Shown here in pieces: positions 3,557 to 42,278 of a stretch of 64,000 nt of DNA. Position 1 is the first letter of the stretch; each line of letters begins with the position of its first letter. Source of the stretch: Thermoanaerobaculia bacterium (lineage in GTDB: Bacteria; Acidobacteriota; Thermoanaerobaculia; Gp7-AA8); assembly GCA_035525285.1 (NCBI GenBank), contig DATLFB010000033.1, positions 4,365 to 68,364 on the forward strand, given 5' to 3'. The notes below the pieces were generated by a model. It saw only the letters and a program-made list of their open reading frames with translations. It was not told the origin of the DNA and did no database searches. A program made the position numbers and the translations under genes.

Positions 3557-4125
3557 GACGACTTCTCCTTGCGCTGTTCGTCGCCGGTGCTGCGCTCGCG
3601 CAGGATCCGGAGTTCGTGCGGATGTGGGAGGAGGCGCAACAGCAGCGGCCTCGCTCGGTTGCCTCCGACGCGCGCATCGCTCCGCCGAACGAACCAGGCA
3701 CACCGCTCGTGGTTCATGGCCGCTTGTTTCAACGCAATGGCGCGACGCCGGTCGCGGGAGTGATCGTGTTCGCGTACCAGACGGATCGCACCGGCGTGTA
3801 CAACCGCAACAACGTGCGCGGATGGCGGCTGCGCGGCTGGGCGCGCACCGACGCCGAGGGACGCTTCACGTTCCGCACGATCCGTCCTGGAACATATCCG
3901 AATCGAAGCGCGCCCGCGCACATTCATCTCTCGATCCAGGGACCGGGCATGCCGCGGCGATGGACGAACGAAGTGCAGTTCGCGGATGACGCGCTGCACA
4001 CGCCGCGTGCGCGACGCGAGTCGGAAGCGGCGGGCGCGTTCGGATCGATCCGACCGGTGACGACGCGCGGGGGCGTGCAGCACGTCGAATTCCATTTGCG
4101 GCTCGAGGAAACGGGATTGTTTTGA
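3553..4125 (+). CDS. Secreted intradiol ring-cleavage dioxygenase-like protein
   Basis: GTG start overlaps the upstream stop (GTGA). Signal peptide, then ...TDAEGRFTFRTIRPGTYPNRSAPAHIHLSI, resembling the intradiol dioxygenase core (DxxGxYxFxTIxPGxYP...HIHF). Confidence 0.5.
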   Translation: MRRLLLALFVAGAALAQDPEFVRMWEEAQQQRPRSVASDARIAPPNEPGTPLVVHGRLFQRNGATPVAGVIVFAYQTDRTGVYNRNNVRGWRLRGWARTDAEGRFTFRTIRPGTYPNRSAPAHIHLSIQGPGMPRRWTNEVQFADDALHTPRARRESEAAGAFGSIRPVTTRGGVQHVEFHLRLEETGLF

Positions 4126-4177
4126 GGAGGGCGGACGTCCCGTCCGCCACTTCGGCGGACGGGACGTCCGCCCTCCT
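4126..4177. repeat. Palindrome family G (GGAGGGCGGACGTCCCGTCCGCC ... GGCGGACGGGACGTCCGCCCTCC)
   Basis: Sits between the convergent dioxygenase (+) and ftsY (-) genes. A bidirectional-terminator-like GC hairpin. Copies at 7407, 49305 and 58193. Confidence 0.8.
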
Positions 4178-5101
4178 TTACTCGAAGAGCGTGTCCACGT
4201 AGGTCTGCGGATCGAACGGGATCAGGTCATCCGCCCCCTCGCCCACCCCGACGAACTTCACCGGGATGTCGAACTGGCGCATGATCGAGAGGATCACGCC
4301 GCCTTTCGCGGTGCCGTCGAGCTTCGTGACGATCATGCCCGTCACCTTCGCCGCTTCGAGAAACGCGGCGGCCTGACTGACGCCGTTCTGGCCGGTCGTG
4401 CCGTCGAGCACGAGCAGCGTCTCGTGCGGCGCGCCGGGGAGCTCTTTGTCGATCACGCGATGGATCTTCGAAAGCTCCTGCATCAGATGCGATTTGTTGT
4501 GCAGGCGGCCGGCGGTGTCGATGAGCACGACGTCGGCATTGCGCGACTTCGCGGCGGAGACGGAGTCGTGCGCGACGGCAGCAGGATCCGAGCCGGCCTT
4601 GTGCTTCACGAGCGGTACGCCGATGCGATCTGCCCACATCTGCAGCTGCTCGATCGCGGCGGCGCGGAAGGTGTCGGCGGCGCCGAGGATCACGCTCTTC
4701 CCTTCGCTCTTCCAGCGTGAGGCGAGTTTGGCGATCGTCGTCGTCTTCCCGGTGCCGTTCACGCCGACGACGAGGATCACGAACGGCTTCGCGCGCGAGA
4801 GGTCGATCGTCTGCGCCGTGCGCTGCGGGATGAGCGCGCGCGTCTCGTGGCGGATCACTTCCGTGAGCCGCTCCATCTTCGTGATCTTCTCGTCGCGCAC
4901 GCGCTGCTCGACGCGCTCGACGAGCGAGGCCGTGAGCTCCGCGCCGACGTCGGCGCCGAGCAGGCCTTCCTCGAGGCCATCGATCGCGGATTGATCGATC
5001 GGAAGGTCGGGAGTCATCGACTCCTTCACCTTGTCGATGATCTCGGTGTGGGTCATGAAGAGCCCACGTTTGAGTTTGTCGAAGAGTGATTTTTCAGCCA
5101 T
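4178..5101 (-). CDS. ftsY: Signal recognition particle receptor FtsY
   Basis: LVVGVNGTGKTTTIAKLA...DTAGRLHNK...TKLDGTAKGG (SRP GTPase G1-G5 motifs). Confidence 0.9.
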   Translation of the reverse strand: MAEKSLFDKLKRGLFMTHTEIIDKVKESMTPDLPIDQSAIDGLEEGLLGADVGAELTASLVERVEQRVRDEKITKMERLTEVIRHETRALIPQRTAQTIDLSRAKPFVILVVGVNGTGKTTTIAKLASRWKSEGKSVILGAADTFRAAAIEQLQMWADRIGVPLVKHKAGSDPAAVAHDSVSAAKSRNADVVLIDTAGRLHNKSHLMQELSKIHRVIDKELPGAPHETLLVLDGTTGQNGVSQAAAFLEAAKVTGMIVTKLDGTAKGGVILSIMRQFDIPVKFVGVGEGADDLIPFDPQTYVDTLFE

Positions 5102-5111
5102 GCCTGTCTCG

Positions 5112-5210
5112 AGCGATGAGCGATGAACGATGAACGATGAACGATGAACGATGAACGATGAATCAGATCATCGATCATCGTTCATCGTTCATCGTTCATC
5201 GTTCATCGTT
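5112..5210. repeat. Heptamer-tandem hairpin, family D: (GATGAAC/CGATGAA)x5 - loop - (TTCATCG)x4
   Basis: gagcgatgaacgatgaacgatgaacgatgaacgatgaatcagatcatcgatcatcgttcatcgttcatcgttcatcgttcatcg. Confidence 0.85.
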
Positions 5211-6273
5211 TCGAGCTCCCGCTCTCCCTCGCCGCAATCGCCCTCTTCACCATCTCCTCATCGATCGTCAGCGCGCCGCTGCTGGTGGGCTCGAACTCCA
5301 GGTTCCGGATCACGCGCCGGTACGTCTCACGCAACGCTCGCGCGCCGAGGCGTTTCTGCCGCGAAGCGTCCCACGCGATGGCGATCAGCGCGCCGCGGGT
5401 GATCTGCAGATCGACGCCGAAGCGGCGGAAGTATTCGCGCGAGGTCCGAAAGATCGACGCCTCGGGCTCGACGAAGATGCGCGCGAGATCCGATTCGCCG
5501 AGGTCGTTGAGGACGATGATCGACTCGAAGCGCGAGATGAACTGCGGGGTCATGCCGTAGCGGAAGAGGTCGTCGTATTTGAGGTAGTCGCCGAGATGGA
5601 ACGGCAGCTCTTCGCGCACTTCCCCCGAGGCGGAGACGACGACGACCGGCTTCATCGCCACGACGTCCTGTCCGAGAGTGGCGCGGCGGAGCACGTTGTC
5701 GTAGAGCTCCTCGAACGCGCCGCCGGCGACGAAGAGGATGTGCGAGGAGTTGATGGCGAAGGTCATCCCGTCGGCTTCGAACTCGACGGTCTCGTTCTCC
5801 ATCAGCGTGAGCAGCGCTTCCTGCGCGACGATGCCGCGCACGTTCGGCGCGCCGCTGACATTCGCGCGGATCTTGTCGACTTCGTCGATGAAGACGATGC
5901 CGCGCTCGACGCCGCGGATGATCTGTTCGGGCGTCGCGCCCGCGCCGAGCATCTTCCGCGCATTCGCGTACAACCGCCCCAGGACGACTTTCCCATACCC
6001 CTGCCGCTCCTCGGCCAGCACATTCGCGTTGAGCCGCACGACGTTCGCGAACTGACGTAACGTCTCCGAGGCCACGAGATACTGCTCGACGGCGCGCATG
6101 AGCGTGGTCTTGCCGGAGCCGGAGTTCCCGATCAGCAGAATGTTCGGCGCGGGCTGGCCGACCAGATGCTTCACGAGCGCGACGGCGATCTCGCGGATCG
6201 CATCGTCCTGGCCGACGACCGAGATGCGCAACGCTTCGAAGATGTCTTTGGGTATCAGGGAAGAGTCAGACAT
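5203..6273 (-). CDS. AAA+ ATPase, ClpX/HslU-like (no N-terminal zinc-binding domain)
   Basis: VVGQDDAIREIAVAL...NILLIGNSGSGKTTLMRA (Walker A)...IVFIDEVDKI (Walker B)...ALLTLMEN. Confidence 0.6.
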   Translation of the reverse strand: MSDSSLIPKDIFEALRISVVGQDDAIREIAVALVKHLVGQPAPNILLIGNSGSGKTTLMRAVEQYLVASETLRQFANVVRLNANVLAEERQGYGKVVLGRLYANARKMLGAGATPEQIIRGVERGIVFIDEVDKIRANVSGAPNVRGIVAQEALLTLMENETVEFEADGMTFAINSSHILFVAGGAFEELYDNVLRRATLGQDVVAMKPVVVVSASGEVREELPFHLGDYLKYDDLFRYGMTPQFISRFESIIVLNDLGESDLARIFVEPEASIFRTSREYFRRFGVDLQITRGALIAIAWDASRQKRLGARALRETYRRVIRNLEFEPTSSGALTIDEEMVKRAIAARESGSSKR

Positions 6274-6299: not shown

Positions 6300-6430
6300 A
6301 GGGTAAAAGGTAAAAGGTAAAAGGTAGCCGGGGGAGGGTAAAAGGTAAAAGGTAAAAGGTAAAAGTGGCTCCGCCATTCGGCGCGCTTGCCGTTTTGCCT
6401 TTTACCTTTTTCCTTTTTCCTTTTACCTCT
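6300..6430. repeat. Heptamer-tandem hairpin, family B: (GGTAAAA)x3 + (GGTAAAA)x4 - loop - (TTTTNCC)x5
   Basis: gggtaaaaggtaaaaggtaaaaggtagccgggggagggtaaaaggtaaaaggtaaaaggtaaaag...ttttgccttttacctttttcctttttccttttacc. Confidence 0.85.
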
Positions 6431-7404: not shown

Positions 7405-7406
7405 TG

Positions 7407-7463
7407 GAGGGCGGACGTCTCGTCCGCCCTGTTCACCAGGGGCGGACGGGACGTCCGCCCTCC
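7407..7463. repeat. Palindrome family G
   Basis: ggagggcggacgtctcgtccgccc...gggcggacgggacgtccgccctcc. Confidence 0.8.
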
Positions 7464-8019: not shown

Positions 8020-10845
8020 TTGACCCGCTCCCCCGCCGCCGTCCTCATCGCCCCCTACCGCGAGATTGCCGCCGCCGTCGCCGCCCGTCTCGCCGCCGCG
8101 CGCGAGGGCTCCGATCCGCTCGACGCGTGGGCCGAAGAGGTGATCGTACCGTCGCGGGGGATGGCGGAGGCAATCTCGAATGAGTTGCTCGTGCGGACGC
8201 CGCGCGGCGTCGCGGGGGTGCAGATCCGCTTTCTGGACGAGCTCGCGCGCGCTCTCGTGAACGATGCGGGCGCGTTTCCGCGCGCAGCGTCGGATGCGGA
8301 GCGCCGGCTGGCGATGCGGATGGCGGTGCGCACGGTGCAGCATCCGATGATGGAGGGCCGCGGCGTGGCGGCGATGCTCGAGCGCTCGTATCGTGATCTG
8401 CGCGACAGCGGTCTCACGCTCGACGGCCTCTCCACGCGCGGCCTGCGCAATCCGCAGCGCACGCAGGCGATCCTCCGCGCATTCGCGGAGTACGAGCGCC
8501 TCATCGCACAGCTCGGCGCGATCGATCCCGCGGATCTCCTCGCGCAGGCGGAGCGCGTCGCGGAACACGCTCGTCCGCAACTGCTCGCCGGCTTCTACGA
8601 CATGACCGGCGCGCAAATGCGCTTCGTTCAGTCGCTGATGCCCCGTATCGCCGCAGTCTGGATTCCCACTGACATGCCGTTCGCCCAGCCGTTCATCGAA
8701 CGTAGCGGCGGGCTTCAGCCCGCCGGAAGCCGGCCGGCTGAAGCCGGCCGCTACGTTTCAGATGCAATGTCCTACGACACGAATCACGCCGAGCTGCGCG
8801 AGGTGTGCGCGCACGTCGCGGAGCTGCTGGAAGGGGGCGAGCAAAGCATCGCCATCACCGCTCGTTCCCTCGACCCCTACGCCATCCATCTCCTCAACCG
8901 CTTCGCCGCCGAGCACGGCTTCGCGACGACGCTGCCCGACGAAATCCCGCTCGCGGCCCATCGCATCGGCCGCGGCGTGCTGACGCTGCTCCGTCTGCGC
9001 GATCGCGGCTTTCCGCGAGGCGAGGTGCTGGAACTGGTGCGCGACGGCCTGCTCGCGCGCACGCGCATCGACGTCGATCGCGCGGACTACGAGACGCGCC
9101 GCGCGCACATCGCCGGCGGCACGAGCGAGGAGCTGGCGCCGCTGCGCAATCGTTCGCGCGCGCTCGACGAGTACATCGCGCTGGTGGCCGAGCTGGAGGA
9201 GTTGACCTCAGGGCTGCCCAGCTACCCGGCTGCCCGGCTACCCAGCACTTCGCCGGGAAGCCGGGAAGCCGGGAAGCCGGGGAGCCCACCGGAGCTCAGC
9301 AGTCTGTTTCGTGTCGAGACCGAGCTCGATCTCGTCGCGGCGGCGAGGCTCGACGAGATCGCGGCGCTGTTCCGGCGGACCGGACAGGCGGGATCGCCTG
9401 TCCTCCACGACCTCATCGACGCGATCGAGCAGGTGTCGCTGACGCAACCGCCGAGCGCGGGACCGAAGGTGTGGGCGGGCGATGTGATGCGCTTTCGCGG
9501 GCGCTCGTTCGCGCACGTGTTCGTCGTGCGGATGCAGGACGATGTGTTCCCGCAGCGGCGCACCGAGGATCCGCTGTTTCCCGATTCCGACCGCCGCGTC
9601 CTCGGGATGCGCGAGATCGGCGACGGGCGGGCGGAGGAGGAGCTGCTGCTGCAGCTCGTGCGCGAGTCCGCGGCGCACGTGCACTTCTCGTTCGCAAGCG
9701 GCGACGGGTTCGGCAAGGTGCTGCGGCCGTCACGGTATCTCCGCGGGCTTGACGTAGCGACCGACTTCAGCCGGTCGAAGGGCGGGCTGAAGCCCGCCCC
9801 TACGTTGTTGCGTCCCCTACAACTGCTCGTGAGGTCGGGAACGCGGTCCGTGTTCGACAGCTACCTCCCGATGCTTGCGGAGACCTTCCGCGCGCGCGTG
9901 CAGTCGGTGACGCCGACGCAGCTCGAGGACTTCGGCGAGTGTCCGCAGAAGTTTTTCTTCAAGCATCTCCTCGGCGTGCAGGAAGTCGAGCATCCCGAGC
10001 GCGAGCTGCAGATCCATCATCGCGAGAAGGGCTCGATCGATCACAAAATCCTCGAGCGCTTCTATCGCGCGCTGTCGTCCGCCGAGCTCGCGAACGCCGC
10101 GGCCGCGCTGCCGCGACTCCCCGACGCGCTCGCCGCGCGGCTCGACACGATCATCGACGAGACCTTCGACGAGCACGAGCAGCAGTTCCCGCCGTTCAAC
10201 CGCACGGTGCGCGGGATCGAGCGGCGCGCGACGAAGCGCATCCTCCGCGAGTTCCTCGCGGGCGACATCGCGGAGCTCACCGCCAGCGAGCTCGAGCCGC
10301 GCCACTTCGAGTACCGCTTCGGCGTCTCGCGCCGCGGCGCGTCGGATCATCCGGAGCCGTTCATCGTCCACGCGGGCGGCGTGCCGGTGCGCGTCGAGGG
10401 GACGATCGATCGCATCGACTACGGCGGGGCCGGCCTGCGCATCGTCGACTACAAGTCGGGAAAAGCAATCCGGCACAACTATCTGCCCGAGAAGATCGAT
10501 CGCGGCGTGCGGCTGCAGCTCGCGCTGTATGCGATGGCCGCCGCGGAGTTCTTCGACAACGCCAACGTCAGCGGCACGATCAAGCCGATCGTGACGGGCG
10601 AGCAGAAATTCAAGTTCGCGTTCGTGCTCGAGGAAAAGCGCGCGACGCTGCTCGAGACGCTCGAGATCTTCCTGCGCGCGATCACCGGCGGCATCTTCCC
10701 CGCGTTCCCGAACGACGAAGACTTCAACTCCTGCAAGTACTGTCCGGTGAGCCACTCGTGCCGCACGCGGCACGATCAGGAGGAGCGCTACGCCGTGCAG
10801 CAGCACCGCGATCCGCGCACGCTCCTCGGCGGAGGCGCGCCGTGA
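8020..10845 (+). CDS. AddB-like PD-(D/E)XK nuclease subunit of a two-subunit helicase-nuclease
   Basis: 941 aa. C-terminal nuclease motif IDRIDYGG..RIVDYKSGKA and Cys staple FGECPQKFF...DFNSCKYCPVSHSC (AddB-type Fe-S). Carries three in-frame palindromic elements (8700-8756, 9210-9290, 9757-9810). Confidence 0.7.
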   Translation: MTRSPAAVLIAPYREIAAAVAARLAAAREGSDPLDAWAEEVIVPSRGMAEAISNELLVRTPRGVAGVQIRFLDELARALVNDAGAFPRAASDAERRLAMRMAVRTVQHPMMEGRGVAAMLERSYRDLRDSGLTLDGLSTRGLRNPQRTQAILRAFAEYERLIAQLGAIDPADLLAQAERVAEHARPQLLAGFYDMTGAQMRFVQSLMPRIAAVWIPTDMPFAQPFIERSGGLQPAGSRPAEAGRYVSDAMSYDTNHAELREVCAHVAELLEGGEQSIAITARSLDPYAIHLLNRFAAEHGFATTLPDEIPLAAHRIGRGVLTLLRLRDRGFPRGEVLELVRDGLLARTRIDVDRADYETRRAHIAGGTSEELAPLRNRSRALDEYIALVAELEELTSGLPSYPAARLPSTSPGSREAGKPGSPPELSSLFRVETELDLVAAARLDEIAALFRRTGQAGSPVLHDLIDAIEQVSLTQPPSAGPKVWAGDVMRFRGRSFAHVFVVRMQDDVFPQRRTEDPLFPDSDRRVLGMREIGDGRAEEELLLQLVRESAAHVHFSFASGDGFGKVLRPSRYLRGLDVATDFSRSKGGLKPAPTLLRPLQLLVRSGTRSVFDSYLPMLAETFRARVQSVTPTQLEDFGECPQKFFFKHLLGVQEVEHPERELQIHHREKGSIDHKILERFYRALSSAELANAAAALPRLPDALAARLDTIIDETFDEHEQQFPPFNRTVRGIERRATKRILREFLAGDIAELTASELEPRHFEYRFGVSRRGASDHPEPFIVHAGGVPVRVEGTIDRIDYGGAGLRIVDYKSGKAIRHNYLPEKIDRGVRLQLALYAMAAAEFFDNANVSGTIKPIVTGEQKFKFAFVLEEKRATLLETLEIFLRAITGGIFPAFPNDEDFNSCKYCPVSHSCRTRHDQEERYAVQQHRDPRTLLGGGAP
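8700..8756. repeat. Palindrome family J (CGTAGCGGCGGGCTTCAGCCCGCCG...CGGCCGGCTGAAGCCGGCCGCTACG), intragenic and in-frame
   Basis: Perfect inverted repeat inside the addB-like CDS (encodes RSGGLQPAGSRPAEAGRY). Copies at 9757 and 54664. Confidence 0.8.
9210..9290. repeat. Family I-like element inside the addB-like CDS, in-frame
   Basis: ctgcccagctacccggctgcccggctacccagcacttcgccgggaagccgggaagccgggaagccgggg encodes LPSYPAARLPSTSPGSREAGKPGSPP. Confidence 0.7.
9757..9810. repeat. Palindrome family J, intragenic
   Basis: gcgaccgacttcagccggtcgaagggcgggctgaagcccgcccctacg within the addB-like CDS. Confidence 0.7.
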
Positions 10846-13800
10846 TGCAGAAGGCATTCGAGTGGGGGACCGGCAAACCTGCCGGTCCGGACAGGCGAGA
10901 TCGCCTGTCCTCCACCTCGCGTCGCAACGTCGTCATCGAAGCGGGCGCGGGAACGGGAAAGACGACGGCGATCGTGGCCGAGGTGCTGAAGCTGATGCTC
11001 GAGCGCGCGGAGCTCGCGCCGGAGCGCATCGTGCTGATGACGTTCACGGAGAAGGCCGCGGGCGAGATCGCGGATCGGATCCGGACAGCGCTCGAGGAGC
11101 TCTCCCAGTCTCCGGCTCTCACCTGGCCCATCGACTCCGCGCATCCCCTCCTCACGATCGACGACCCCGACTCCGCGCGCCGCGCGATCGCGCATCATCT
11201 CGCCAACATCGACGCGCTGCGCTCGCAGACGATCCACTCGTTCTGCCAGTCGCTGCTGCGCACCTTCCCGATCGAGGCGGGGCTCGATCCGCAGTTCAAG
11301 ATCATCGAAGGCTTCGAGCGCTCGCTGCTCTACGGGCAGCTGTACGACGCGTGGATCGATCAGGAGACGCGCGTCCATCCGACGGAGGAGGGAGTGCGCG
11401 AGTGGGAGCTGCTCTTCGCGCACGCCGGCTATCTCTTCCAGATCCGCGATCTGATCCTCGGCATGATCGATCGCCGCGATCTGCTCGAGGAGACGGGCTA
11501 CGACTTCGGCACGCTCGAAGAAGTCGAAGAGAAGCTGATCGATGCACTCGTCGCGATCCGCCGCTGCGGCGATACGGTGGGCGACGAGCAGGCGCAGCGA
11601 ATCTTCGCGTACGTCCGCGAGACCGATCCGCCGGCGCCCGGCGACATCGATCGCTGGCTCGAGTATCTCCATCCGATCGCCGCTTCGATCCGCGATGCGA
11701 ATCTGCCGCGCCACGGAATCCTCAAGGAGGCGCTGAAGATCCTGCGCGGCAAGGAGTCGAAGGGGCGCTCGGTCTACGACTATCTCGTGCGCCACCGTGC
11801 GGCAATCGCGCTGCTCGCGCTGACGCGGCGTTTCCTCGCCTACCTCGACGAGGAAAAGCGCCGCCTCGGCGTCGTCGACTTCGACGATCTGCTGCTCCGC
11901 ACGCTCGCGCTGCTCGACGACGCGGGCGTGCTGGCCCGCGCGCGCGCGCAGTTCGATTTCATCTTCGTCGACGAGTTTCAGGACACCGACCGCACGCAGG
12001 CGCGAATCATCGACCGCCTCGCGCGCGACGCGTCGGGCACATACGTCGCGGGCAAGACGATCGTGGTCGGCGATCCGAAACAGTCGATCTACGGATTCCG
12101 CCGCGCCGATCCGGAGACGTATTACCGGATGACGGAAGGTCTCGTGGCCGGCGGAGCGGAGCGGCGCGTGATCGCGGATCAGTACCGCAGCGATCCGCCG
12201 CTGCTCGACGCCGTGAACGCGCTCTTCGCACGGCTTTTCCCCGACACGCTGCAACACGACCCGAACGTGTTCCGCCCGCGTTACACGCCGCTGCGCGCGG
12301 CGCGCGAGTCGTCGCGCCGCGAGCTCGATGCGCGGATCACGCTGCTGCACGCGCAGCACGACGACGCGGCGGATAAGTTCATCGTCGAGGCGGAGGCGAT
12401 CGCGAAGTGGATCAAGGCGCGCGCGGAAGGCGATCTGCGGCGCTTCGCGATCCTCTTCCGGCGCCTGACGAAGCTCGACGATTATCTCGACACGTTCGAT
12501 CGCCACGGCATCGACTACGTGCTCCCGCCGACGCGCATGTTTCTCGACCGCCGCGCGCCGGTCGATCTGCTGGCGGTACTGCGAGCGATCGCCTACCCGT
12601 TCGATCACGGCGCGCAGATCTCGGCGGCAAGGACGCCGTACTTTGCGCTGACGGATGAGGAGATCGCGGAAGGGGTGCTGCGTGCTGCGTGCAGCGTGCA
12701 GGAGGGCGACGTGACGCAGCACGCAGCACGCAGCACGCAGCACCCGTGGACGGCATTCGTCGCCGCCATCGCCCGCTTCCGCGACCACGCCCGCCATCTC
12801 ACCGCCTCCCAGCTCATCGACCTCGTCATCACCACGACCGGCATCGAGCGCGTGTACGACGCCGCGGCGGACGGCGTGCGCCATCTGCGGCATCTCGAGC
12901 ACGTGCGCGCGATCGCGTTCGAGTACGACCAGCGCACGGGCGGATCGGTCGGACAATTCGTCGGGGAGATCTCGCAGCGGCGCGGCGAGCCGGACGAGAT
13001 CGAGCCGAGCCTGATCGACGAGTCGAAGAACGCGGTGCGGATCATGTCCGTGCACGCGGCAAAGGGGCTCGAGTTCGAGACGGTCATCCTCCCCGACCTC
13101 GCCGTGCAGCCGCCGTCGAACGACACGCAACTCTTCACCGTCGAGGAGCCGCGCAGCCTCGTGCTCGCGGGGCGCGTGGAGTCGATCTCGGCGAACTTCC
13201 GCTTCGCGAACGGCGAGAAACTGAAGCGCATCAACGCGCGGCGCGAGGAGGCGGAGACGCGGCGGCTGTTCTACGTCGGCGTCACGCGCGCGAAGACGGA
13301 CGTCGTGTTCGTCTGCAATCTCGCCGAGGAGACGAAGAACGTTGGATTCCTGCGCTGCCTGTGCGAGGGGCTGGGGATCGAGAAGAACGCGCTCACGGGA
13401 ATGTTCGTCGATGGACGCACGGTCCATGCGACAGAGATTGGGGATGTTGCGTTCGAGCGGGTGTGGAGTGCGGCAACGCCAGTTGCCGCTGTCGTAGGAA
13501 AGCGGCGACTGGCGTCGCCGCACTCCACACTCGAAGCGGAGCTCGCGACAGGCGGGATCGTCCCGTGCGAGATCGCCGCGCCCTCCCCTGTCACCGCGCG
13601 TCTCGCGACGAGCGAAGTGGCCGCGCGCCGCGCCGGCTCCCGCAATCGCGCGGCGGGCATCCTCCTGCATCGCGTCCTCGAGCGCTGGGACGGACGTGCC
13701 GATACCGAGCCGCTGCTGAAGCAGCTCGCGGTCGAGACCGCGGCGGAGGAGGAGGCGGTCGCGCGCGTACGCCGGCGGCTGGCCACGGTCGCGCGCTCCG

Positions 13801-14102
13801 CGACCCTGCAGCGCATCGCGAGCGCGGAGACGATCGGCCGCGAGGTGCCGGTGCGTTTCGTCGAGGAAGGCGCACTCGTCGAGCGCCGCATCGATCGCCT
13901 GCTGCGCGAGAACGGCGCGGAGCTCGTCGTCGACTACAAGAGCGGCGCGGCCGAGGAGTCGCGCGTCGCGAAAGACCGCGAGCACGTCGAGCGGTACTGC
14001 CGCGCGATCTCCGGCATCACCGGCCGCCCGTGCAGCGGGCTCCTCTGGTACGTCGATGTGGAGAACGACGTCGTCGTGGAGGTGCTGCGTGCTGCGTGCT
14101 GA
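10845..14102 (+). CDS. AddA-like ATP-dependent helicase-nuclease (UvrD-type helicase with C-terminal PD-(D/E)XK nuclease)
   Basis: Start ATG overlaps the addB stop (TGATG). VVIEAGAGTGKTTAIV (Walker A)...FIFVDEFQDTD...VVGDPKQSIYGFRRAD...C-terminal ELVVDYKSG nuclease motif. The ORF-track start at 9939 is an antisense-style extension. Confidence 0.8.
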   Translation: MQKAFEWGTGKPAGPDRRDRLSSTSRRNVVIEAGAGTGKTTAIVAEVLKLMLERAELAPERIVLMTFTEKAAGEIADRIRTALEELSQSPALTWPIDSAHPLLTIDDPDSARRAIAHHLANIDALRSQTIHSFCQSLLRTFPIEAGLDPQFKIIEGFERSLLYGQLYDAWIDQETRVHPTEEGVREWELLFAHAGYLFQIRDLILGMIDRRDLLEETGYDFGTLEEVEEKLIDALVAIRRCGDTVGDEQAQRIFAYVRETDPPAPGDIDRWLEYLHPIAASIRDANLPRHGILKEALKILRGKESKGRSVYDYLVRHRAAIALLALTRRFLAYLDEEKRRLGVVDFDDLLLRTLALLDDAGVLARARAQFDFIFVDEFQDTDRTQARIIDRLARDASGTYVAGKTIVVGDPKQSIYGFRRADPETYYRMTEGLVAGGAERRVIADQYRSDPPLLDAVNALFARLFPDTLQHDPNVFRPRYTPLRAARESSRRELDARITLLHAQHDDAADKFIVEAEAIAKWIKARAEGDLRRFAILFRRLTKLDDYLDTFDRHGIDYVLPPTRMFLDRRAPVDLLAVLRAIAYPFDHGAQISAARTPYFALTDEEIAEGVLRAACSVQEGDVTQHAARSTQHPWTAFVAAIARFRDHARHLTASQLIDLVITTTGIERVYDAAADGVRHLRHLEHVRAIAFEYDQRTGGSVGQFVGEISQRRGEPDEIEPSLIDESKNAVRIMSVHAAKGLEFETVILPDLAVQPPSNDTQLFTVEEPRSLVLAGRVESISANFRFANGEKLKRINARREEAETRRLFYVGVTRAKTDVVFVCNLAEETKNVGFLRCLCEGLGIEKNALTGMFVDGRTVHATEIGDVAFERVWSAATPVAAVVGKRRLASPHSTLEAELATGGIVPCEIAAPSPVTARLATSEVAARRAGSRNRAAGILLHRVLERWDGRADTEPLLKQLAVETAAEEEAVARVRRRLATVARSATLQRIASAETIGREVPVRFVEEGALVERRIDRLLRENGAELVVDYKSGAAEESRVAKDREHVERYCRAISGITGRPCSGLLWYVDVENDVVVEVLRAAC
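12683..12742. repeat. Heptamer-tandem hairpin, family F: (GTGCTGC)x3 - loop - (CAGCACG)x4, inside the addA-like CDS and in-frame
   Basis: gtgctgcgtgctgcgtgcagcgtgcaggagggcgacgtgacgcagcacgcagcacgcagcacgcagcac encodes VLRAACSVQEGDVTQHAARSTQH. Confidence 0.8.
13448..13540. repeat. Unique palindromic hairpin inside the addA-like CDS
   Basis: gtggagtgcggcaacgccagttgccg...cggcgactggcgtcgccgcactccac (in-frame: VWSAATPVAAVVGKRRLASPHST). Confidence 0.6.
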
Positions 14103-14140
14103 GTGCTACGCGGCACGCGGCACGCGGCACGCAGCACTAC
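14085..14140. repeat. Heptamer-tandem hairpin, family F (GTGCTGC / GCACGCG arms)
   Basis: gtgctgcgtgctgcgtgctgagtgctacgcggcacgcggcacgcggcacgcagcac. Overlaps the addA stop, between addA and marC. Confidence 0.8.
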
Positions 14141-15694: not shown

Positions 15695-16105
15695 CGTCGC
15701 CATCAGCTCTTCGATGCGCCGCGCGAGCTCGTCGCGCGTGTGGATGAAGCGGCCGAAGCGCGTGTGCGGATCGTCGGGGCCGAACGAGGGATCCTCGATC
15801 GGCCAGTGCTCGATGCGCTTCGCGCCGGGCCACATCGGACAGTCCTGCGCCGCGGAGTCGCAGACGGTGACGACGATGTCGAAGGTCTGCTCCACGAACC
15901 TGTCGGCCGATTTCGACTCGGCATCCTGGATGTCGATGCCGAGGTCCGCGAGGGCCTGAATCGCGAGCGGATGCACCCAGCCCGCGGGGCGCGATCCGGC
16001 GGAGACGACGTCGACCCTGTCGCCATGAAACGCGCGCGCGAGGCCTTCCGCCATCTGCGAGCGCGCGGCGTTGCCGGTGCAGAGAAAAAGAATCTGCTTC
16101 TTCAT
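15689..16105 (-). CDS. arsC: Arsenate reductase, LMW-PTP family (thioredoxin-coupled ArsC)
   Basis: MKKQILFLCTGNAARSQMAEG (CX5R P-loop)...VVTVCDSAAQDCP. Confidence 0.8.
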   Translation of the reverse strand: MKKQILFLCTGNAARSQMAEGLARAFHGDRVDVVSAGSRPAGWVHPLAIQALADLGIDIQDAESKSADRFVEQTFDIVVTVCDSAAQDCPMWPGAKRIEHWPIEDPSFGPDDPHTRFGRFIHTRDELARRIEELMATL

Positions 16106-16458
16106 ACGCGCGTGGCCTCGTAGGTTCGCTCGTTGCGGACGTTGCCGGTGTTGAGCGTGCTCGCCGGCTCGAAGAGCAGCACGTGCGCCTCCTCGGCCGC
16201 GACCGGCCGATGCTCCACGCCGCGCGGGACGATGAAGAATTCGCCCTCGCCGAGGGGGATGTCGGCGTCGCGAAGCTGAATCGTCATCGCGCCTTTGAGC
16301 ACGAGAAAGAGCTCGTCTTCATGCTCGTGGTGATGCCACACGAACTCGCCCTGCAGCTTGACGACTTTGACGTGCTGGCCATTCAACTCGCCGACGACGC
16401 GCGGCTGCCACTGCTCGGTGAAGGAGGCGAGCTTTTCGGTGAGAGAGACTTTTTCCAT
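16102..16458 (-). CDS. Cupin domain protein
   Basis: ...VWHHHEHEDELFLVLKG...GEFFIVPRGVEHRP (cupin motifs G(X)5HXH(X)3-4E... and G(X)5PXG(X)2H). Confidence 0.7.
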   Translation of the reverse strand: MEKVSLTEKLASFTEQWQPRVVGELNGQHVKVVKLQGEFVWHHHEHEDELFLVLKGAMTIQLRDADIPLGEGEFFIVPRGVEHRPVAAEEAHVLLFEPASTLNTGNVRNERTYEATRV

Positions 16459-16504
16459 CGGAGAAGCGTACCGCGGAGCGGGCCATCCTGTACGCTAAGA
16501 CCGG

Positions 16505-16831
16505 ATGGACAAACCGCGAATCTTCCTGGGCTCGTCAGGAAAGCAGGAGAAACTGCTGCAGGCGCTGACACGCGGTCTCGAAGACGTCGCGCACGTAGAA
16601 GCGCCGCAACTGGACGGGACGGGAGAGATCCGAGTCGAATCCGCCGATCGCGCGGACGGGTACTTCACGACTCATTCGGACACTCACCCCAAAGTCAACA
16701 CAAGGACGTCCGGCGTCTATCTGCGCGCCGATCCGGAGGACTTGAACATCCTGGATGGACGCGGCAACCGGCAACGCGCGGAGTTGATTGCGGAGCGTCT
16801 GAGAGACTGGAAGTCGATCACGAACGTGTGA
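16505..16831 (+). CDS. Hypothetical protein
   Basis: 108-aa ORF with no recognisable motif. Lies at the edge of the lower-GC islet. Weak call. Confidence 0.25.
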   Translation: MDKPRIFLGSSGKQEKLLQALTRGLEDVAHVEAPQLDGTGEIRVESADRADGYFTTHSDTHPKVNTRTSGVYLRADPEDLNILDGRGNRQRAELIAERLRDWKSITNV

Positions 16832-16894
16832 GATCGGTTAGTGAGACGCCGCGCTTTCGGCGACGTTCTCGGCTCGTCGCGTTCGACTGCGACA

Positions 16895-17188
16895 CTAACG
16901 AGCCAGCTTGCGCCAATAACCAGGGCGCCTGCTTTCGTGCGCGACCGCGACGACGTTTACTGTGTTGCTCTCTACGAAATAGACAAGAGAGTATGGATAC
17001 GTCGGGAAAACGTACCGCTGCGTTCCGGCGATGTAGCGCGGCCACCGGTGCGGAGCCTCTACGATGAGATCAACGGCATGATCCAGCTCGCGTAGGAAGC
17101 CGGCTTCGGCCACTTCACTCTGATCCCGGTACCACTTGCGGGCCTCTTCGACTTCGTCGTCAGCCGCCTCGAAGAAATGTGGCTGCAT
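16895..17188 (-). CDS. Type II toxin, RelE/ParE family
   Basis: 97 aa; ...RWPRYIAGTQRYVFPTYPYSLVYFVESNTVNVVAVAHESRRPGYW, typical ParE/RelE C-terminus. ATGA overlap with the upstream antitoxin. Confidence 0.7.
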   Translation of the reverse strand: MQPHFFEAADDEVEEARKWYRDQSEVAEAGFLRELDHAVDLIVEAPHRWPRYIAGTQRYVFPTYPYSLVYFVESNTVNVVAVAHESRRPGYWRKLAR

Positions 17189-17418
17189 TAACGATCGAGG
17201 CGATGCAAACGAGCTCGGACTTCCGCCCAGGGAATGGTCTTTACTCTGCCCGCTCGGTAGTCTTCCATGCGTCGCTGAATTTCAGCGGCCCAAGCCTCCT
17301 CGACTCCTTCATCCCGCACCTCTTCGATGCTCTCGAGGAGGAGGCCTGCGAGCTCGGCACGCTCGCCGGGGGGTAGCTCTGCTGCCTTGGCGTAAAGTTC
17401 CTGGACGTCGCGCGTCAT
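17188..17418 (-). CDS. Antitoxin (putative addiction-module component, ParD-like)
   Basis: 76 aa acidic protein, ...ELPPGERAELAGLLLESIEE...AWAAEIQRRMEDYRAG, immediately upstream of and overlapping the ParE-like toxin. Confidence 0.6.
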   Translation of the reverse strand: MTRDVQELYAKAAELPPGERAELAGLLLESIEEVRDEGVEEAWAAEIQRRMEDYRAGRVKTIPWAEVRARLHRLDR

Positions 17419-17702
17419 GCGGCGATTCTAGCGCGAAACCGTTCGAGCGATCTCTGCGCATGCGTTGCCGAGGGTGCTCGTGGGCGCCGAGCTGCTGACA
17501 ATCAGGTCTCTGCGCTGCGGCGGGCGTCACGCGCGTGGAGCAATGCGGCGCGGCGGCTGCCGCGCCACGAATGCTTTTGACGGCGGCGCGATGTGCCGCC
17601 GACGTGCCGCCGTCCAGCTACGATGTTCCCGAGCCGGCTCGGCCGGCGGGCCGGACAGCAGCCCGCCCGTCGGCTCCTGTGTGGAGTTAAGCCGCGGCGG
17701 CC

Positions 17703-18407
17703 CTACACTGGTGATGAGAAGTGCTCGAGCAGGAAAGGCTCCAAAAAGCCGAGCAGACTCGAAACGTCCGCTTCCGCGATCCTTGACCAGTCCGCATGCA
17801 TCGCAGCATTCCTCAATTTGACGTAGGACGCAACAATTGGCCCCTGTGCGCCGCCTAAAATCCCCTTTGATTTGAGCGCGTTCATGACGGCGTCCAACGT
17901 CTTGTTGCCGACCGCCAGATCGAGTTCTAGCGCCTTGCGCTTTAGAGCGTCTTCTAGCGCCGCCGACGCTAATACCGCGGCCACATCCTTGTATCCGGCT
18001 TTCAACTGCGTCCTGGCAAGCGCCACAAGATCGCCAATAACTACACCAGCGGCTTCGGTCGCGATGCTGTTGATCAAACCCAGTTCAATTTCTTCGGCCG
18101 TATTGCGAAGCACCGCATCCAACGATTCCGCGAACGACTGTATGCGTTTGTTTGTATAACCTAAAGGTGTCGAGAGCTTATGCATCTCCATGAGTGCCTT
18201 GATCTGTGGCGACGTCGAGCCGTATAGACTAGTCGCGATATTCAGTGCCCCGGCGAAAACAGCGTCCACTTCGGTGCGCGCGTCTGCTCTCCCAAGCTCG
18301 TGCGGGTTTGCAACTCGGCTTCGCAATTTCTGGATGCGCGTGAGGTATGCCTCACGGCGCTGCGATACATTCATGGGCGGAGAATATAGCACTTCACTCC
18401 TGTCCAA
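17703..18407 (-). CDS. HEPN-like (DUF4145-type) protein
   Basis: 234 aa in a lower-GC stretch. C-terminal ...KLRNAAMHADW fits the HEPN Rx4-6H motif. Confidence 0.4.
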   Translation of the reverse strand: MDRSEVLYSPPMNVSQRREAYLTRIQKLRSRVANPHELGRADARTEVDAVFAGALNIATSLYGSTSPQIKALMEMHKLSTPLGYTNKRIQSFAESLDAVLRNTAEEIELGLINSIATEAAGVVIGDLVALARTQLKAGYKDVAAVLASAALEDALKRKALELDLAVGNKTLDAVMNALKSKGILGGAQGPIVASYVKLRNAAMHADWSRIAEADVSSLLGFLEPFLLEHFSSPV

Positions 18408-18992
18408 ATTAGCTTTTGAGAAACAGCGCTCAGATGGGCGTCGCCCGCAAGAGAACGTCGCTGAGTCTCGTTTCCGGCCACGAAACCAGCCATGGACGCC
18501 ACTTTCCGAGGCTCTATCAGGCAGGACGGACGCGGTCCAGCCGGGCTGGCAATTTGGACAGCAGCCAAGGAAGGAAGGGGTCTCATCTCGCGAACGTTAC
18601 CGGAGCGTCGTGTTTTCAATAAGTTAGGAGCGCGATTTTGTCGATTCACAGCTAATTTGGACAGCAGTGATAGCACTTACGTCGGCCGACAAGGCCATTG
18701 GAGGTATAAATGAAACAGCCGACCAGACGGCTCAAAACTCGTCGGCCCAACAGCTTTTTCGTTCCACATCCCCATCCACCCTCGTAATCGGCAGATATTT
18801 TCTGTATAGGAGGCGCATGTGCCGCGCCACCCGGCCGTGTGATCGCCGGACGTCTTCTGTGGCTTGTGTCGACAGAGTATTTACGTTCTCGACCCGTCGG
18901 ACATGCGCGTCGGATTTGCGGCCGCCGCAGCGCTTCCGCGAGCGAACGACAATCATTTTTCGGCGCCGTCTGAAGCGCAAAACCGCGCGCGC

Positions 18993-19247
18993 CTACGGCG
19001 AGAGCCGCTCGATGATCCAATCCTTCGGCTCGCGCAATCGATACACGATGCGGTCGTGCAGGCGATCGGCTCTCCCCTGCCAGAACTCGACCGGGATCAC
19101 GCGGTAGCCACCCCAGTGCGGGGGGCGTGGGATCTGGCGGTCGCGGTACGTCGCTTCGAGCTCCGCGAAGCGGAGCTCGAGATCGACGCGGCCGTGGATG
19201 ACCGCGCTCTGGTTCGAGGCCCAGGCATTATCGGAGTCGTGTTTCAA
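18993..19247 (-). pseudogene. Duplicated 3' fragment of pdxH (last ~84 codons)
   Basis: Translation [77 protein letters not shown] is ~95% identical to the C-terminus of intact pdxH (19711..19960). The DNA forms a direct repeat of about 250 bp. Confidence 0.75.
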
Positions 19248-19429
19248 GGCTCTGGAATTGAAAGTGCGCGACAGATCCTGCGAGCGAGATGGTTCGGAGT
19301 TTCCTGGTGCCGCGGTACGGCTTCGATATGACCGGTCTGCGGATTACACCACAGTTCGTGCTCTTTCCCCTGGCGCTTGAGATAGCAGCCGTGCCGCCGC
19401 AGATGACGAAGGAGCTCGCGTTGTTTCAC
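19244..19429 (-). CDS. hicA: HicA family toxin (YcfA-like mRNA interferase)
   Basis: 61 aa; [41 protein letters not shown]. Confidence 0.75.
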
Positions 19430-19641
19430 TCAACAACAACCGTCTCGCAAATCGCCGTTTCGGGAACACCACGAAGCGCGTCTTCGCGCCGGTCTTCAAG
19501 AATCAGCGCAATCGCTTCGGCAAGATTGGCGCGCGCTTCGCCGGTCGTTCGACCCTGCCCATTCGCGCCCGGGATCTCCGGGGAATAGGCGATGAACCAG
19601 TCTTCGTCGCGCTCGATGATTGCAGTGAATTCGTTGTGCAT
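19426..19641 (-). CDS. hicB: HicB family antitoxin (UPF0150)
   Basis: 71 aa; MHNEFTAIIERDEDWFIAYSPEIPGANGQGRTTGEARANLAEAIALILE. Overlaps hicA by 4 nt. Confidence 0.7.
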   Translation of the reverse strand: MHNEFTAIIERDEDWFIAYSPEIPGANGQGRTTGEARANLAEAIALILEDRREDALRGVPETAICETVVVE

Positions 19642-19710
19642 GGAGCTTCGATTCTACTCCGACTTCGAGGGTGACGATCGGCGACGGTAGCGCGGCGCGT
19701 CGCGCCGCCC

Positions 19711-20322
19711 TTACGGCGAAAGCCGCTCGATGATCCAGTCCTTCGGCTCGCGCAGGCGATACACGATGCGATCGTGCAGGCGATCGGCTCTCCCCTGCCA
19801 GAACTCGAACTCGACCGGGATCACGCGGTAGCCGCCCCAGTGCGGGGGGCGTGGGATCTGGCGGTCGCGGTACGTCGCTTCGAGCTCCGCGAAGCGGAGC
19901 TCGAGGTCGCCGCGGCCGTGGATGACCGCGCTCTGGTTCGAGGCCCAGGCGCCGAGCTGGCTGCCGCGCGGGCGGGTGGCGAAGTAGGCGTCGGATTCCT
20001 GTTCGGTCGTCTTCACCACCGCGCCTTCGATGCGCACCTGGCGGTCGAGGACCGGCCAGAAGAAACAGAGCGACAGGCGGGGGTTCTCGGTGATCTGCAC
20101 GCCCTTGGGGCTGTGATAGTTCGTGTAGAAGACGAATCCGTGCTCGTCGAAGTCCTTGAGCAGGCAGACGCGCGAGCGGACGATGCCGTCGGCGCCGCAC
20201 GTGGAGACCGTCATCGCTTCCGGCAGCTCGCGGATCTTCTGTCTGGCTTCCTCGAACCAGTGCGCGAACTGCGCGAACGGGCTTTTCTCGAGATCGCTCT
20301 CGAGCAACGCGGTTGTATTCAC
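19711..20322 (-). CDS. pdxH: Pyridoxamine 5'-phosphate oxidase
   Basis: ...VSTCGADGIVRSRVCLLKDFDEHGFVFYTNYHSPKG...RIEG...[15 protein letters not shown]... Confidence 0.85.
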   Translation of the reverse strand: MNTTALLESDLEKSPFAQFAHWFEEARQKIRELPEAMTVSTCGADGIVRSRVCLLKDFDEHGFVFYTNYHSPKGVQITENPRLSLCFFWPVLDRQVRIEGAVVKTTEQESDAYFATRPRGSQLGAWASNQSAVIHGRGDLELRFAELEATYRDRQIPRPPHWGGYRVIPVEFEFWQGRADRLHDRIVYRLREPKDWIIERLSP

Positions 20323-21002
20323 GAAACACTCCTCTCACGCAGCAGGCGCTCGATCTTGCGGAGGACACGCAGCGACTCGGCGTGCGGCATGAGCGCGGCC
20401 GCCGGGTCGAGCGCGACCCAGGCGAGCTCGTTCGACTCGCCGCGGTCGATGGTGATGGCATCGGGGCTCGACGTGCGTGCGAGATATCGCACGTCGAAGT
20501 GATCGTGGTCCGGCTCATGGCGCGCCGCGGGGATTTTGTGGATGTCGAGATCGAAGATGGCCGTGGCGCTGGCGCGGATTGAGGATTGAGGATTGAGGAT
20601 GGCGCTGGCGCGGATTGAGGATTGAGGATTGAGGATAGCGCTGGCGCGGATTGAGGATTGAGGATTGAGGATTGAGGAAGGAGGGAGCAGCTCGAGATCG
20701 GTGAGGCCCGACTCCTCGGCGCCCTCGCGGAGCGCGGCGGCATCGGGCGTTTCATCGCCTTCGACGTGCCCGCCCATCTGCAGCCAGCGATCGAGGCGGC
20801 GGTGATGATGGAGGAGCAGGCGGCCGCCGTCATCGATGATGAAGCAGCTCGCGGTGACGTGTCCCGGCGCGAAGTGCGCGCGCGAGAAGGGCTCGGCGGC
20901 GTCGCGCACGAGATCGAGCATCGCATGGCGATGCCCCGCCTCGAGCTCGTCGGCGGGCTCGTAGGCTCGGAGCTCTTCGAATAGTCGCGCGGCGCGGGAC
21001 AT
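20319..21002 (-). CDS. NUDIX hydrolase with an internal 3 x 13-aa tandem repeat
   Basis: Start at MSRAARLFEEL (ATG 21002). Nudix box GGHVEGDETPDAAALREGAEESGL. The ORF-track extension to 22256 is antisense to the kinase gene. Confidence 0.8.
   Translation of the reverse strand: MSRAARLFEELRAYEPADELEAGHRHAMLDLVRDAAEPFSRAHFAPGHVTASCFIIDDGGRLLLHHHRRLDRWLQMGGHVEGDETPDAAALREGAEESGLTDLELLPPSSILNPQSSIRASAILNPQSSIRASAILNPQSSIRASATAIFDLDIHKIPAARHEPDHDHFDVRYLARTSSPDAITIDRGESNELAWVALDPAAALMPHAESLRVLRKIERLLRERSVS
20571..20690. repeat. Direct tandem repeat, 3 x 39 bp (ggcgctggcgcggattgaggattgaggattgaggat), inside the NUDIX CDS
   Basis: In-frame. Encodes (ILNPQSSIRASA)x3 between the Nudix box and the C-terminal region. 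The unit itself contains (GATTGAG)x3. Confidence 0.85.
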
Positions 21003-25677: not shown

Positions 25678-25775
25678 GAGTTGAGAAAATTGAAAATTGA
25701 AAATTGAAAATTGAAAAAAGAGCGAACGGGCCCGTGCTGCGGCCTCCTTTTTCAATTTTCAATTTTCAATTTCAC
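25678..25775. repeat. Heptamer-tandem hairpin, family A (AAATTGA)x4 ... (TCAATTT)x3
   Basis: gagaaaattgaaaattgaaaattgaaaattgaaaaaagagcgaacgggcccgtgctgcggcctcctttttcaattttcaattttcaatttcac. Between coxB and ctaA inside the operon. Confidence 0.85.
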
Positions 25776-25782
25776 ATTGGCG

Positions 25783-26804: not shown

Positions 26805-26935
26805 TCGATGGTTACCCGGCTGCCCGGTTGCCCGGCGGCGCAGTGCGGGTGCCTGCGCCTTTGCGTGATGTGGCGCCGCCCCCCGGACGGCGCCGCCGGG
26901 AAACCGGGAAACCGGGAAACCGCCCCCCGTCACGG
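26805..26935. repeat. Palindromic element, family I (longest copy)
   Basis: ggttacccggctgcccggttgcccgg...ccgggaaaccgggaaaccgggaaaccgcc, between two small ORFs of the oxidase operon. Confidence 0.8.
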
Positions 26936-30162: not shown

Positions 30163-30271
30163 CCATCCTCCTCAGTCCCCTCTCCCCCCGGGAGAGGGTT
30201 AGGGTGAGGGGCGTCCCCTCATCCGGCCTCCGGCCACCTTCTCCCCGCAAGCGGGGAGAAGGGACTGCTTG

Positions 30272-31087: not shown

Positions 31088-31097
31088 TGAATCTCCT

Positions 31098-34487: not shown

Positions 34488-34593
34488 ATAAAGGCAGAAG
34501 GCAGAAGGCAGAAGGCAGAAGTGAGAACCGTGACACGGCGCGTGACGCGTGCCTTTCTTACTTCTGCCTTCTGCCTTCTGCCTTCTGCCTTCA
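34488..34593. repeat. Heptamer-tandem hairpin, family C: (GAAGGCA)x4 - loop - (TGCCTTC)x4
   Basis: aaaggcagaaggcagaaggcagaaggcagaagtgagaaccgtgacacggcgcgtgacgcgtgcctttcttacttctgccttctgccttctgccttca. Confidence 0.85.
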
Positions 34594-36618: not shown

Positions 36619-36643
36619 CCAGCCCCCAACGAGTTGTCACGAA

Positions 36644-37318: not shown

Positions 37319-37349
37319 CTATCGGTGAAAACGGGAAGGTAGTCAAGCC

Positions 37350-42266: not shown

Positions 42267-42278
42267 AGAACAAAGCCA

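Follow-up and report, generated by a model that had tools for sequence, protein, structure and literature searches.

Probable REP doublets of a RAYT system, and tandem-armed hairpins at shared sites, in a soil lineage of Thermoanaerobaculia

Results

Hairpin families in a chromosomal window

The DNA analysed here is a stretch of 64,000 nt (the window) from the metagenome-assembled genome (MAG) of an uncultured soil bacterium of the class Thermoanaerobaculia, Acidobacteriota (contig DATLFB010000033.1, positions 4,365-68,364, forward strand), and our subject is a set of long hairpins that lie between and within its genes. Four families of them, termed G, H, I and J, had been described in an earlier annotation made from the letters alone (the sequence-only reading) as interspersed, perfect palindromes akin to repetitive extragenic palindromic (REP) sequences or miniature inverted-repeat transposable elements (MITEs), either mobile or repeatedly regenerated. 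The surrounding genes are ordinary chromosomal ones: Pfam searches of 52 open reading frames (ORFs) recognise phosphoglucomutase, ftsY, an addAB-like helicase-nuclease, cytochrome oxidase, a bc-complex, a chemotaxis operon and gatCA, at a G+C content of 60-69%. No Rfam family is matched at gathering score anywhere in the window, and a tRNA-derived origin of the elements was dropped, as ARAGORN finds no tRNA gene in it. Loci used for comparison were a syntenic one on a 5.08-Mb contig (L017, L099), 80 from metagenomes in the neighbourhood of ftsY (L018-L097), that of the nearest relative for gatA (L098, 92% identity) and one further locus, L100. The FtsY and GatA of the window match proteins of a Thermoanaerobaculia MAG at 100% identity, and relatives in soil number in the hundreds at 77-92% identity. 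An assembly artefact was rejected, as the same elements appear in independent NCBI, ENA and JGI assemblies.

Copies were located by pattern search (for G with at most three mismatches), and long hairpins by a separate hairpin scan. The window holds eight arm matches of family G against 0.01 expected, ten of H against 0 expected, six of J against 0.13 and 24 of the octamer-repeat arms of I against 0, the last spread over six sites (five from the pattern search and one, at 9221-9277, from the hairpin scan). All four families lie where they had been reported, with offsets of 0-10 nt and far above chance. The G, H and J material comprises four G doublets, five H doublets and a single H unit, and three J doublets, to which one other doublet is added. 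Hairpins with stems of at least 16 bp number 29, against 0-2 in each of 15 dinucleotide shuffles, and those with stems of at least 20 bp number 26, against none in the same 15 shuffles; once heterodimers join the scanned hairpins the count is about 34, close to the earlier figure of more than 35 in 64 kb. The claim that stems are kept and loops vary was sound, with spacers of 2-14 nt whose sequences are unrelated between copies. Perfect palindromy holds for G1, H1 and H2 only; all other copies have 1-3 arm mismatches, and within J2 and J3 the arms are substantially unlike. Among the reported H half-sites, that at 9383-9408 does look like a single unit, while that at 10890 is the right half of a full doublet (10862-10915) with a diverged left arm. 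What had been missed is the internal palindromy of each G, H and J arm, the location of many copies within ORFs and the tandem-octamer make-up of I.

Anatomy of the G, H and J units

Every arm of a G, H or J element is itself a small hairpin, in which an unpaired head of 5-6 nt is followed by an 8-bp, G+C-rich stem and a loop of 3-4 nt, giving a unit of 23-26 nt. The G unit reads GGAG-GGCGGACG-TCY-CGTCCGCC, the H unit GTGGAG-GACAGGCA-ATCC-TGCCTGTC and the J unit CGTAG-CGGCGGGC-TTCA-GCCCGCCG; the heads are GTAG in J, GTGGAG or GTGGGG in H and GGAG in G, with GTGGAG in one G arm. Two such arms, arranged head-outward around a variable spacer, make up each of 13 inverted doublets in the window. 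A homodimer forms a single long hairpin (-52 to -60 kcal/mol, z -7.5 to -13), as in G1 at 4126-4176, where GGAG-GGCGGACG-TCC-CGTCCGCC arms flank a 5-nt spacer and the RNA fold reaches -60.3 kcal/mol (z -12.6). The heterodimers J2 (9753-9804), J3 (54673-54723) and H5 in addA (10862-10915) have unlike arms, and yet compensatory changes keep every arm a perfect hairpin; these elements fold as two small hairpins closed by paired heads, a Y-shaped structure in J2. In H5 the left arm, GTGGGG-GACCGGCA-AACC-TGCCGGTC, and the right arm, GTGGAG-GACAGGCG-ATCT-CGCCTGTC, do not match each other. The conserved thing in G, H and J is the small hairpin, and not only the long one.

The comparison took in 27 distinct variants of the unit, drawn from the window and from relatives. 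Across them 99% of stem cells pair, against 30-47% with a shifted partner, figures that are descriptive and no test, as the set was chosen partly for palindromy. Each of the eight stem positions is occupied by two to four different Watson-Crick pair types. The heads give the consensus G-T-G-[G/T]-A-G, in which the last G never varies, and C stands third in the loop in 26 of the 27. Pairs were counted on a manual ungapped alignment; the pair-counting tool was left aside because MAFFT misplaced gaps in units of only 25-26 nt.

Position relative to genes

The intergenic doublets sit tightly against stop codons. G1 occupies the entire gap of two convergent stops (TGA at 4123-4125 and the ftsY stop at 4178-4180). 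G2 (7406-7463, found by pattern search) overlaps the TAG of vanZ by 1 nt, and the ATG of the response-regulator gene that follows lies 1 nt past the element. G3 (49305-49362, pattern search), whose left arm has the full GTGGAG head, lies between cheY-like and cheA genes, and G4 (58192-58246) between PP2C and GAF-HD genes, just upstream of the likely GAF-HD start. The perfect doublet H2 (40206-40269) begins 2 nt after the cheB stop and ends 37 nt before the next start codon, and in J3, between gatA and an amidase gene, the TAG of the right-hand GTAG head is the gatA stop codon.

By no means all copies lie between genes: eight of the 14 G/H/J-type sites are in frame within ORFs (addB, addA, gatA, the PatA-like gene and the cytochrome c tail). 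The perfect doublet H1 (31104-31162; GTGGAG-GACAGGCA-ATCC-TGCCTGTC) codes for the final ~19 residues of a multihaem cytochrome c, with the stop TAA 3 nt on, followed by the Shine-Dalgarno sequence of the next gene. The heterodimer H3 (50891-50951) is translated in a linker of a PatA_N/receiver protein (ORF residues 315-335). The 54-nt H4 (55970-56023) encodes VGDRQSCLSGQAGLPVLH inside the amidase domain match of GatA, at a position that corresponds to a variable loop in solved GatA structures. The AddB-like ORF (8020-10845) contains J1 (8701-8755; CGTAG-CGGCGGGC-TTCA-GCCCGCCG, encoding RSGGLQPAGSRPAEAGRYV in a variable linker), the family I copy I3, the single H unit (9383-9408, minus strand; GTGGAG-GACAGGCG-ATCC-CGCCTGTC) and J2 in a second linker. 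The AddA-like ORF (10845-14102) contains H5, which encodes residues 6-24, a GTGCTGC heptamer hairpin (12671-12747) and a doublet absent from the earlier list, GTGGAG-T-GCGGCAAC-GCCA-GTTGCCGC at 13463-13528. Both proteins align colinearly with their L017 orthologs, and the elements fall into variable linkers. At least seven in-frame hairpin elements are found in the window's AddAB-like genes (8020-14102); in most of the relatives' addAB genes (L017-L097), three to four linker sites are filled by some hairpin, be it a REP doublet or one with tandem-7 or tandem-8 arms. H is translated in two frames, as GDRQSC...LPVLH in gatA and the cytochrome tail and as ...DRRDRLSST in AddA and the PatA-like protein, which marks it as a nucleic-acid element and not a peptide module.

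Two functional identities at the RNA level were considered. Intrinsic (Rho-independent) terminators were rejected: they would need a U-tract, whereas no copy is followed by a T-run longer than 3 on either strand, and a terminator scan of 1-20 kb called no copy terminator-like. CsrA-type sites (GGA/TCC loops with GGAG heads), or a GGAGG head serving as ribosome-binding site, were dropped, J having no GGA loop. Native junctions of the clade (vanZ/response regulator in 23 relatives; window 31085-31103) read stop plus GGAG, as in TGAGGAG or TAAAGGAG, and GGAG-headed units at such junctions push the ribosome-binding site beyond a hairpin of about -56 kcal/mol. Native junctions of this kind may favour the insertion or retention of GGAG-headed units.

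Filled and empty sites

Two sites allow a filled element to be compared with its empty counterpart. Of 120 GatA orthologs (77-100% identity), 118 have a short 'HVNRDAPAGT'-type loop and no H insert; the H-encoded insert, a net gain of 11 residues, is confined to the protein of the window and that of the relative with 92% identity. Aligned as DNA, filled and empty gatA show no target duplication, and the comparison resembles the replacement of ~25 nt by ~58 nt rather than a clean insertion. At the vanZ/response-regulator junction, the 58-nt G doublet of the window is absent from all 23 relatives compared: in 21 the gap is 1-25 nt, typically 'TGAGGAG' (stop plus ribosome-binding site), and the remaining two have one a tandem-octamer and the other a tandem-heptamer hairpin. 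There too, filled and empty sites show no target-site duplication.

Relatives also point to turnover. After the gatA stop, where the window has J3, L098 has a 54-mer identical to the window's H4, spacer included; the identity of this doublet at a different locus indicates that whole doublets can be copied and that sites turn over. Sporadic copies of G, H and J are also seen in other relatives. Most relatives have other elements at the addB linker sites: the J1 site holds an H-derived peptide in L038, both J sites hold J-derived peptides in L083, and in several others the linkers hold heptamer-derived 'NRQPTT' peptides. None of the 78 ftsY loci of relatives has G at the position of G1. No empty site was obtainable for G1, whose convergent dioxygenase-like neighbour has no ortholog beside ftsY in the fetched relatives. 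A long hairpin lies upstream of ftsY in about 17 of the 78, built from at least ten different repeat units.

RAYT genes in relatives

Relatives were probed for REP-associated tyrosine transposases (RAYTs) with an approximate E. coli RayT sequence, and matches were confirmed by Pfam Y1_Tnp (PF01797). In L031 (10943-11640) and L077 (1063-1855), a Y1_Tnp gene with its REP doublets lies directly downstream of ftsY; in the window this position is occupied by G1 alone. The L031 and L077 genes are bordered on both sides by doublets of GTGTGG-CGCCGGCG-CCCT-CGCCGGCG or a close variant, and their homologs, which carry the JGI name 'REP element-mobilizing transposase RayT', are frequent in Thermoanaerobaculia MAGs. 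Seven units of GTGGAG-GACAGACA-CTCT-TGTCTGTC border the RAYT of L101, differing from H in one compensated stem pair and the loop. The RAYT of L102 is bordered by GTGTAG-GACAGGCG-CCCY-CGCCTGTC, with the very stem of the window's H variants at 9383, 10890 and 50891, and that of L103 by units with another stem. In L104-L113 the RAYT sits at a conserved position between inverted GTGGGG-CGCCGGCG-CCCT-CGCCGGCG units, adjoining the same β-lactamase-family gene in the eight loci whose contigs reach upstream. A RAYT with bordering units, as found in these relatives, is the REPtron arrangement that defines REP-RAYT systems. Many RAYT homologs of the clade are on contigs of ~0.5-2 kb, which suggests that flanking repeats break short-read metagenome assemblies at these loci.

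Tandem-armed hairpins

Family I is built differently. Its arms consist of three to four tandem GGTTNCCC octamers and the complement of these; they have neither a head nor an internal palindrome, and the four families are thus not of one kind. The six copies are I1 (920-1015; GGTTNCCC octamers upstream of the phosphoglucomutase start), I2 (2877-2953, its first base being the G of the upstream TAG stop), I3 (9221-9277; in frame in addB, a 19-residue insertion relative to the L017 ortholog), I4 (26810-26921, in the gap between cytochrome oxidase genes), I5 (38875-38960, ending directly before the stop at 38961-38963 of the upstream response-regulator gene) and I6 (52715-52804, 2 nt past the amidase_3 stop and 15 nt before the ribH start).

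This construction is shared by the heptamer hairpins of the window, whose units are CGATGAA, GAAGGCA, AATTGAA, GGTAAAA, AGCTCTT and GTGCTGC. They lie at 2464-2561, 5111-5218, 6337-6427, 12671-12747, 14082-14137, 25688-25778 and 34488-34594, and further along at 36643-36725, 37349-37438, 38270-38347, 42278-42351, 44603-44674, 47093-47181 and 51690-51791. Their arms hold three to seven tandem heptamers, and most fill minus-strand intercistronic gaps from the stop to a few nucleotides before the start; copies of one family have inner-arm ends in common and unrelated loops. At these sites relatives bear other units, and the multi-copy families are particular to each genome (CGCGGAGA in L099 is one case). 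The number of units varies from one orthologous site to another, CGATGAA being present about seven times per arm in the window, about five in L017 (mixed CGATGAA/GGATGAA), about four in L090 and about 1.5 in L084. Family I falls outside the REPs and is grouped with the heptamer-armed hairpins, which share hot spots with the REP doublets. A literature search returned no description of such tandem-armed hairpins, whether of the family I or the heptamer type.

Two further observations concern the window at large. Another small palindromic family, likewise absent from the earlier list, is built on CCCTCTCCCCGC...GCGGGGAGAGGG / GGGTGAGGGG and is seen at ~30200-30275 and 41379-41406, and in relatives at L022 4523-4614, L024 5930-5986 and L038 12221-12295. 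The stretch 16100-20900 has a lower G+C content (0.60-0.62) and four ORFs without Pfam match (16183-17067, 17703-18407, 18190-18627 and 19496-20926), and may be an acquired or fast-evolving segment.

Discussion

Assignment of G, H and J

We consider it probable that families G, H and J are REP elements, or REP doublets forming hairpins (REPINs), of a RAYT system belonging to the GTAG superfamily. They combine a short stem-loop unit, a conserved tag, an arrangement in inverted doublets and insertion without target-site duplication. The sequence-only reading had called them REP-like and mobile, and for these three families that description has gained the unit architecture with its GTAG-type head, the inverted doublets, the filled and empty sites and the RAYT linkage in relatives. 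It had also named two outcomes that would speak against an element family, namely a lack of copies elsewhere and loops identical throughout, as after a recent segmental duplication; copies are found outside the window, in relatives, and loops are not identical among copies. As for a RAYT partner, which it also suggested, Y1_Tnp/RAYT genes of relatives are bordered by the same kind of unit and the window has none.

Several observations weigh against the assignment and temper our confidence in it. Neither Pfam on the 52 ORFs nor tblastn detects a RAYT or other Y1 transposase in the 64-kb window, and no RAYT among the fetched loci is bordered by an exact G or J unit. The head of G conserves only GGAG and not GTAG, the weakest fit to the notion of a conserved tag, and the pairing statistics of the 27 variants come from a set in which palindromy was partly a reason for inclusion. 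Spacers differ among copies of one family, which is unexpected if whole doublets are always copied as one. Finally, with eight of 14 sites intragenic, the elements contradict a strict meaning of 'extragenic'.

The exact 23-nt G arm also occurs, among the matches listed, in Caulobacterales, Akkermansiaceae, Verrucomicrobiae, Labrys okinawensis, Anaerolineales and Obscuribacterales (L001-L016), mostly as a single unit, often right after a TAA stop, or paired with GGAG-CGCGGGCG-TCC-CGCCCGC. REP/RAYT systems are usually regarded as vertically inherited, and one unit across phyla is unusual. The occurrence of G in Caulobacterales led us to consider identity with the CGTC-tagged REPs, which was rejected: in G, H and J the first stem pair is G-C or C-G, and there is no CGTC end.

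Alternative explanations

The rival that fares best, though we hold it to be unlikely, has the elements generated and homogenised in place by replication slippage and intrastrand template switching (quasi-palindrome correction, or fold-back copying), with no transposase involved. In its favour, every copy has a spacer of its own, and the tandem-armed hairpins have equal unit numbers in both arms and numbers that vary between orthologous sites, as in the CGATGAA series. It does not explain why the same 23-26-nt arm recurs at many unrelated loci, why an identical 54-mer stands at two loci in two genomes, or why RAYT genes are associated with such units. In-place generation is plausible as a secondary process, and for family I. 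The spread of family I could possibly have come about by slippage and fold-back copying, or by transposase-mediated copying; the 'repeatedly regenerated' of the earlier account may hold for the tandem-armed class alone.

A somewhat smaller chance attaches to the view that the copies arose locally as functional RNA structures, be they intrinsic terminators, attenuators or stem-loops that stabilise mRNA, and are alike by convergent selection. In its favour, intergenic copies lie 0-2 nt from stops, between co-directional or convergent genes; the folds are very stable, and relatives have different hairpins at the same junctions. Convergence would, however, have to produce identical or near-identical arms of 23-26 nt, and an identical 54-mer, at unrelated loci and in different genomes. 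It would also have to account for in-frame copies within gatA and addAB, for RAYT genes bordered by the same units, and for a lack of T-runs and of terminator calls in the scanned 1-20 kb.

MITEs, that is, deletion derivatives of DDE insertion sequences that move by cut-and-paste with target-site duplication, are very improbable as an explanation. Small dispersed inverted repeats with variable centres do resemble them, and the sequence-only reading had used the term; the flanking direct repeats sought at the gatA and vanZ/response-regulator sites are, however, missing from both filled/empty comparisons, and the elements lack the inverted termini that a DDE transposon has. With its GTAG-type head every arm forms a small hairpin by itself, unlike the terminal repeats that a transposase binds, single units exist (9383-9408), Y1/RAYT is the only transposase found beside such units, and Pfam recognises no DDE transposase among the window ORFs. 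It is extremely improbable that the repeats exist for the sake of the protein, as recurrent peptide motifs under selection in linkers: the peptide DRRDRLSST is common to AddA and the PatA-like protein and eight sites are read in frame, but the same DNA is read in the other frame in gatA and the cytochrome tail (GDRQSC...LPVLH), both orientations and non-coding gaps are used, and conservation tracks base pairing rather than codons.

Proposed mechanism and significance

If G, H and J are REP/REPIN elements, their spread can be pictured as follows. The units would be non-autonomous, and a RAYT (a Y1 HUH enzyme of the IS200/IS605 type) would recognise the head and small hairpin on single-stranded DNA and place copies of single units or whole doublets elsewhere, with no target duplication. 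Copies would then be removed by purifying selection except directly behind stop codons and in disordered stretches of protein. The intergenic survivors would be those within 0-2 nt of stops, often filling the intercistronic gap, and the intragenic survivors those in frame in disordered linkers and surface loops. Once transcribed, the hairpins (-35 to -60 kcal/mol, no U-tract) would probably act as barriers to 3'-exonucleases or as translational insulators rather than as terminators.

More speculatively, the tandem-armed hairpins may be a hitherto undescribed class of self-expanding dispersed palindromes that compete with REP doublets for hot spots across the Thermoanaerobaculia, perhaps with RAYT dependence, and the exact G unit in at least five phyla may reflect horizontal spread of REP/RAYT. 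We regard this combined proposal as doubtful, at odds that clearly favour its being wrong; the tandem-armed hairpins nevertheless deserve a study of their own, lying as they do at the same sites.

To our knowledge, REP-RAYT systems have been studied almost only in Proteobacteria. The present case would add a rich one in an abundant, uncultured soil lineage, with several unit families per genome and several RAYT loci that have their own units. It also offers a natural experiment, in that hairpins of about -53 kcal/mol are carried in frame in the essential gatA and at least seven elements lie within addAB; the latter support a previous finding, so far without explanation, that genes for recombination and repair are where intragenic REPs cluster. 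On the practical side, the elements probably break metagenome assemblies, many contigs with a RAYT being no longer than about 1 kb, mislead gene callers into extending ORFs through palindromes, and create lineage-specific peptide inserts.

Comparison with known systems

The tandem-armed hairpins, family I and the heptamer type, recall the tandem heptanucleotide direct repeats of cyanobacteria and Beggiatoaceae (TAACTGA is an example), which also consist of tandem units of 7-8 nt, are mostly intergenic near starts or stops, and have lineage-specific units. The difference lies in the arrangement, since in the window every array is paired with an inverted one to give a long hairpin, and the families are multi-copy with conserved inner ends, whereas MacGregor 2015 (PMC4679880) reports one indirect repeat among 170 sets in the Orange Guaymas "Maribeggiatoa" genome.

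The Rickettsia palindromic elements (RPEs) resemble G, H and J as palindromic repeats that stand in frame in protein genes and are tolerated as an extra peptide. RPE-4 and RPE-6 differ in having CGTC tags, stems that start with A-T pairs and no associated transposase; they have been treated as CGTC-type REPs, a family with a CGTC tag, an A-T stem start and a CCA tail (PMC3733652).

The closest counterparts are the GTAG REPs, known from eight phyla with stems of 6-13 bp and loops of 2-4 nt (Di Nocera 2013, PMC3733652), and the REPINs as defined by Bertels & Rainey 2011 (PMC3116915). GTAG REPs form head-to-head and tail-to-tail dimers, both homo- and heterodimers, with joint or separate folding; they sit after ORFs, between convergent or co-directional genes, where the TAG of the tag can be the stop codon; GTGG tag variants occur in Opitutus terrae and RAYT-type genes in Acidobacteria; and in-frame intragenic copies, documented in other species as exceptions to an extragenic location, are concentrated in recBCD/uvr repair genes (PMC3733652). 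The elements described here differ in that the head is mostly GTGGAG or GGAG, the spacers are very short (2-14 nt) and variable, more than half of the window sites are intragenic, one of them in the essential gatA, and the RAYT link is known from relatives. They agree with GTAG REPs and REPINs in tag, stem, loop and dimer folds, in a TAG that serves as stop codon, in in-frame copies within repair genes and, as seen in relatives, in RAYT genes bordered by such units. The REP features of G, H and J have thus already been reported in other phyla, and what is new is the lineage, the class Thermoanaerobaculia.

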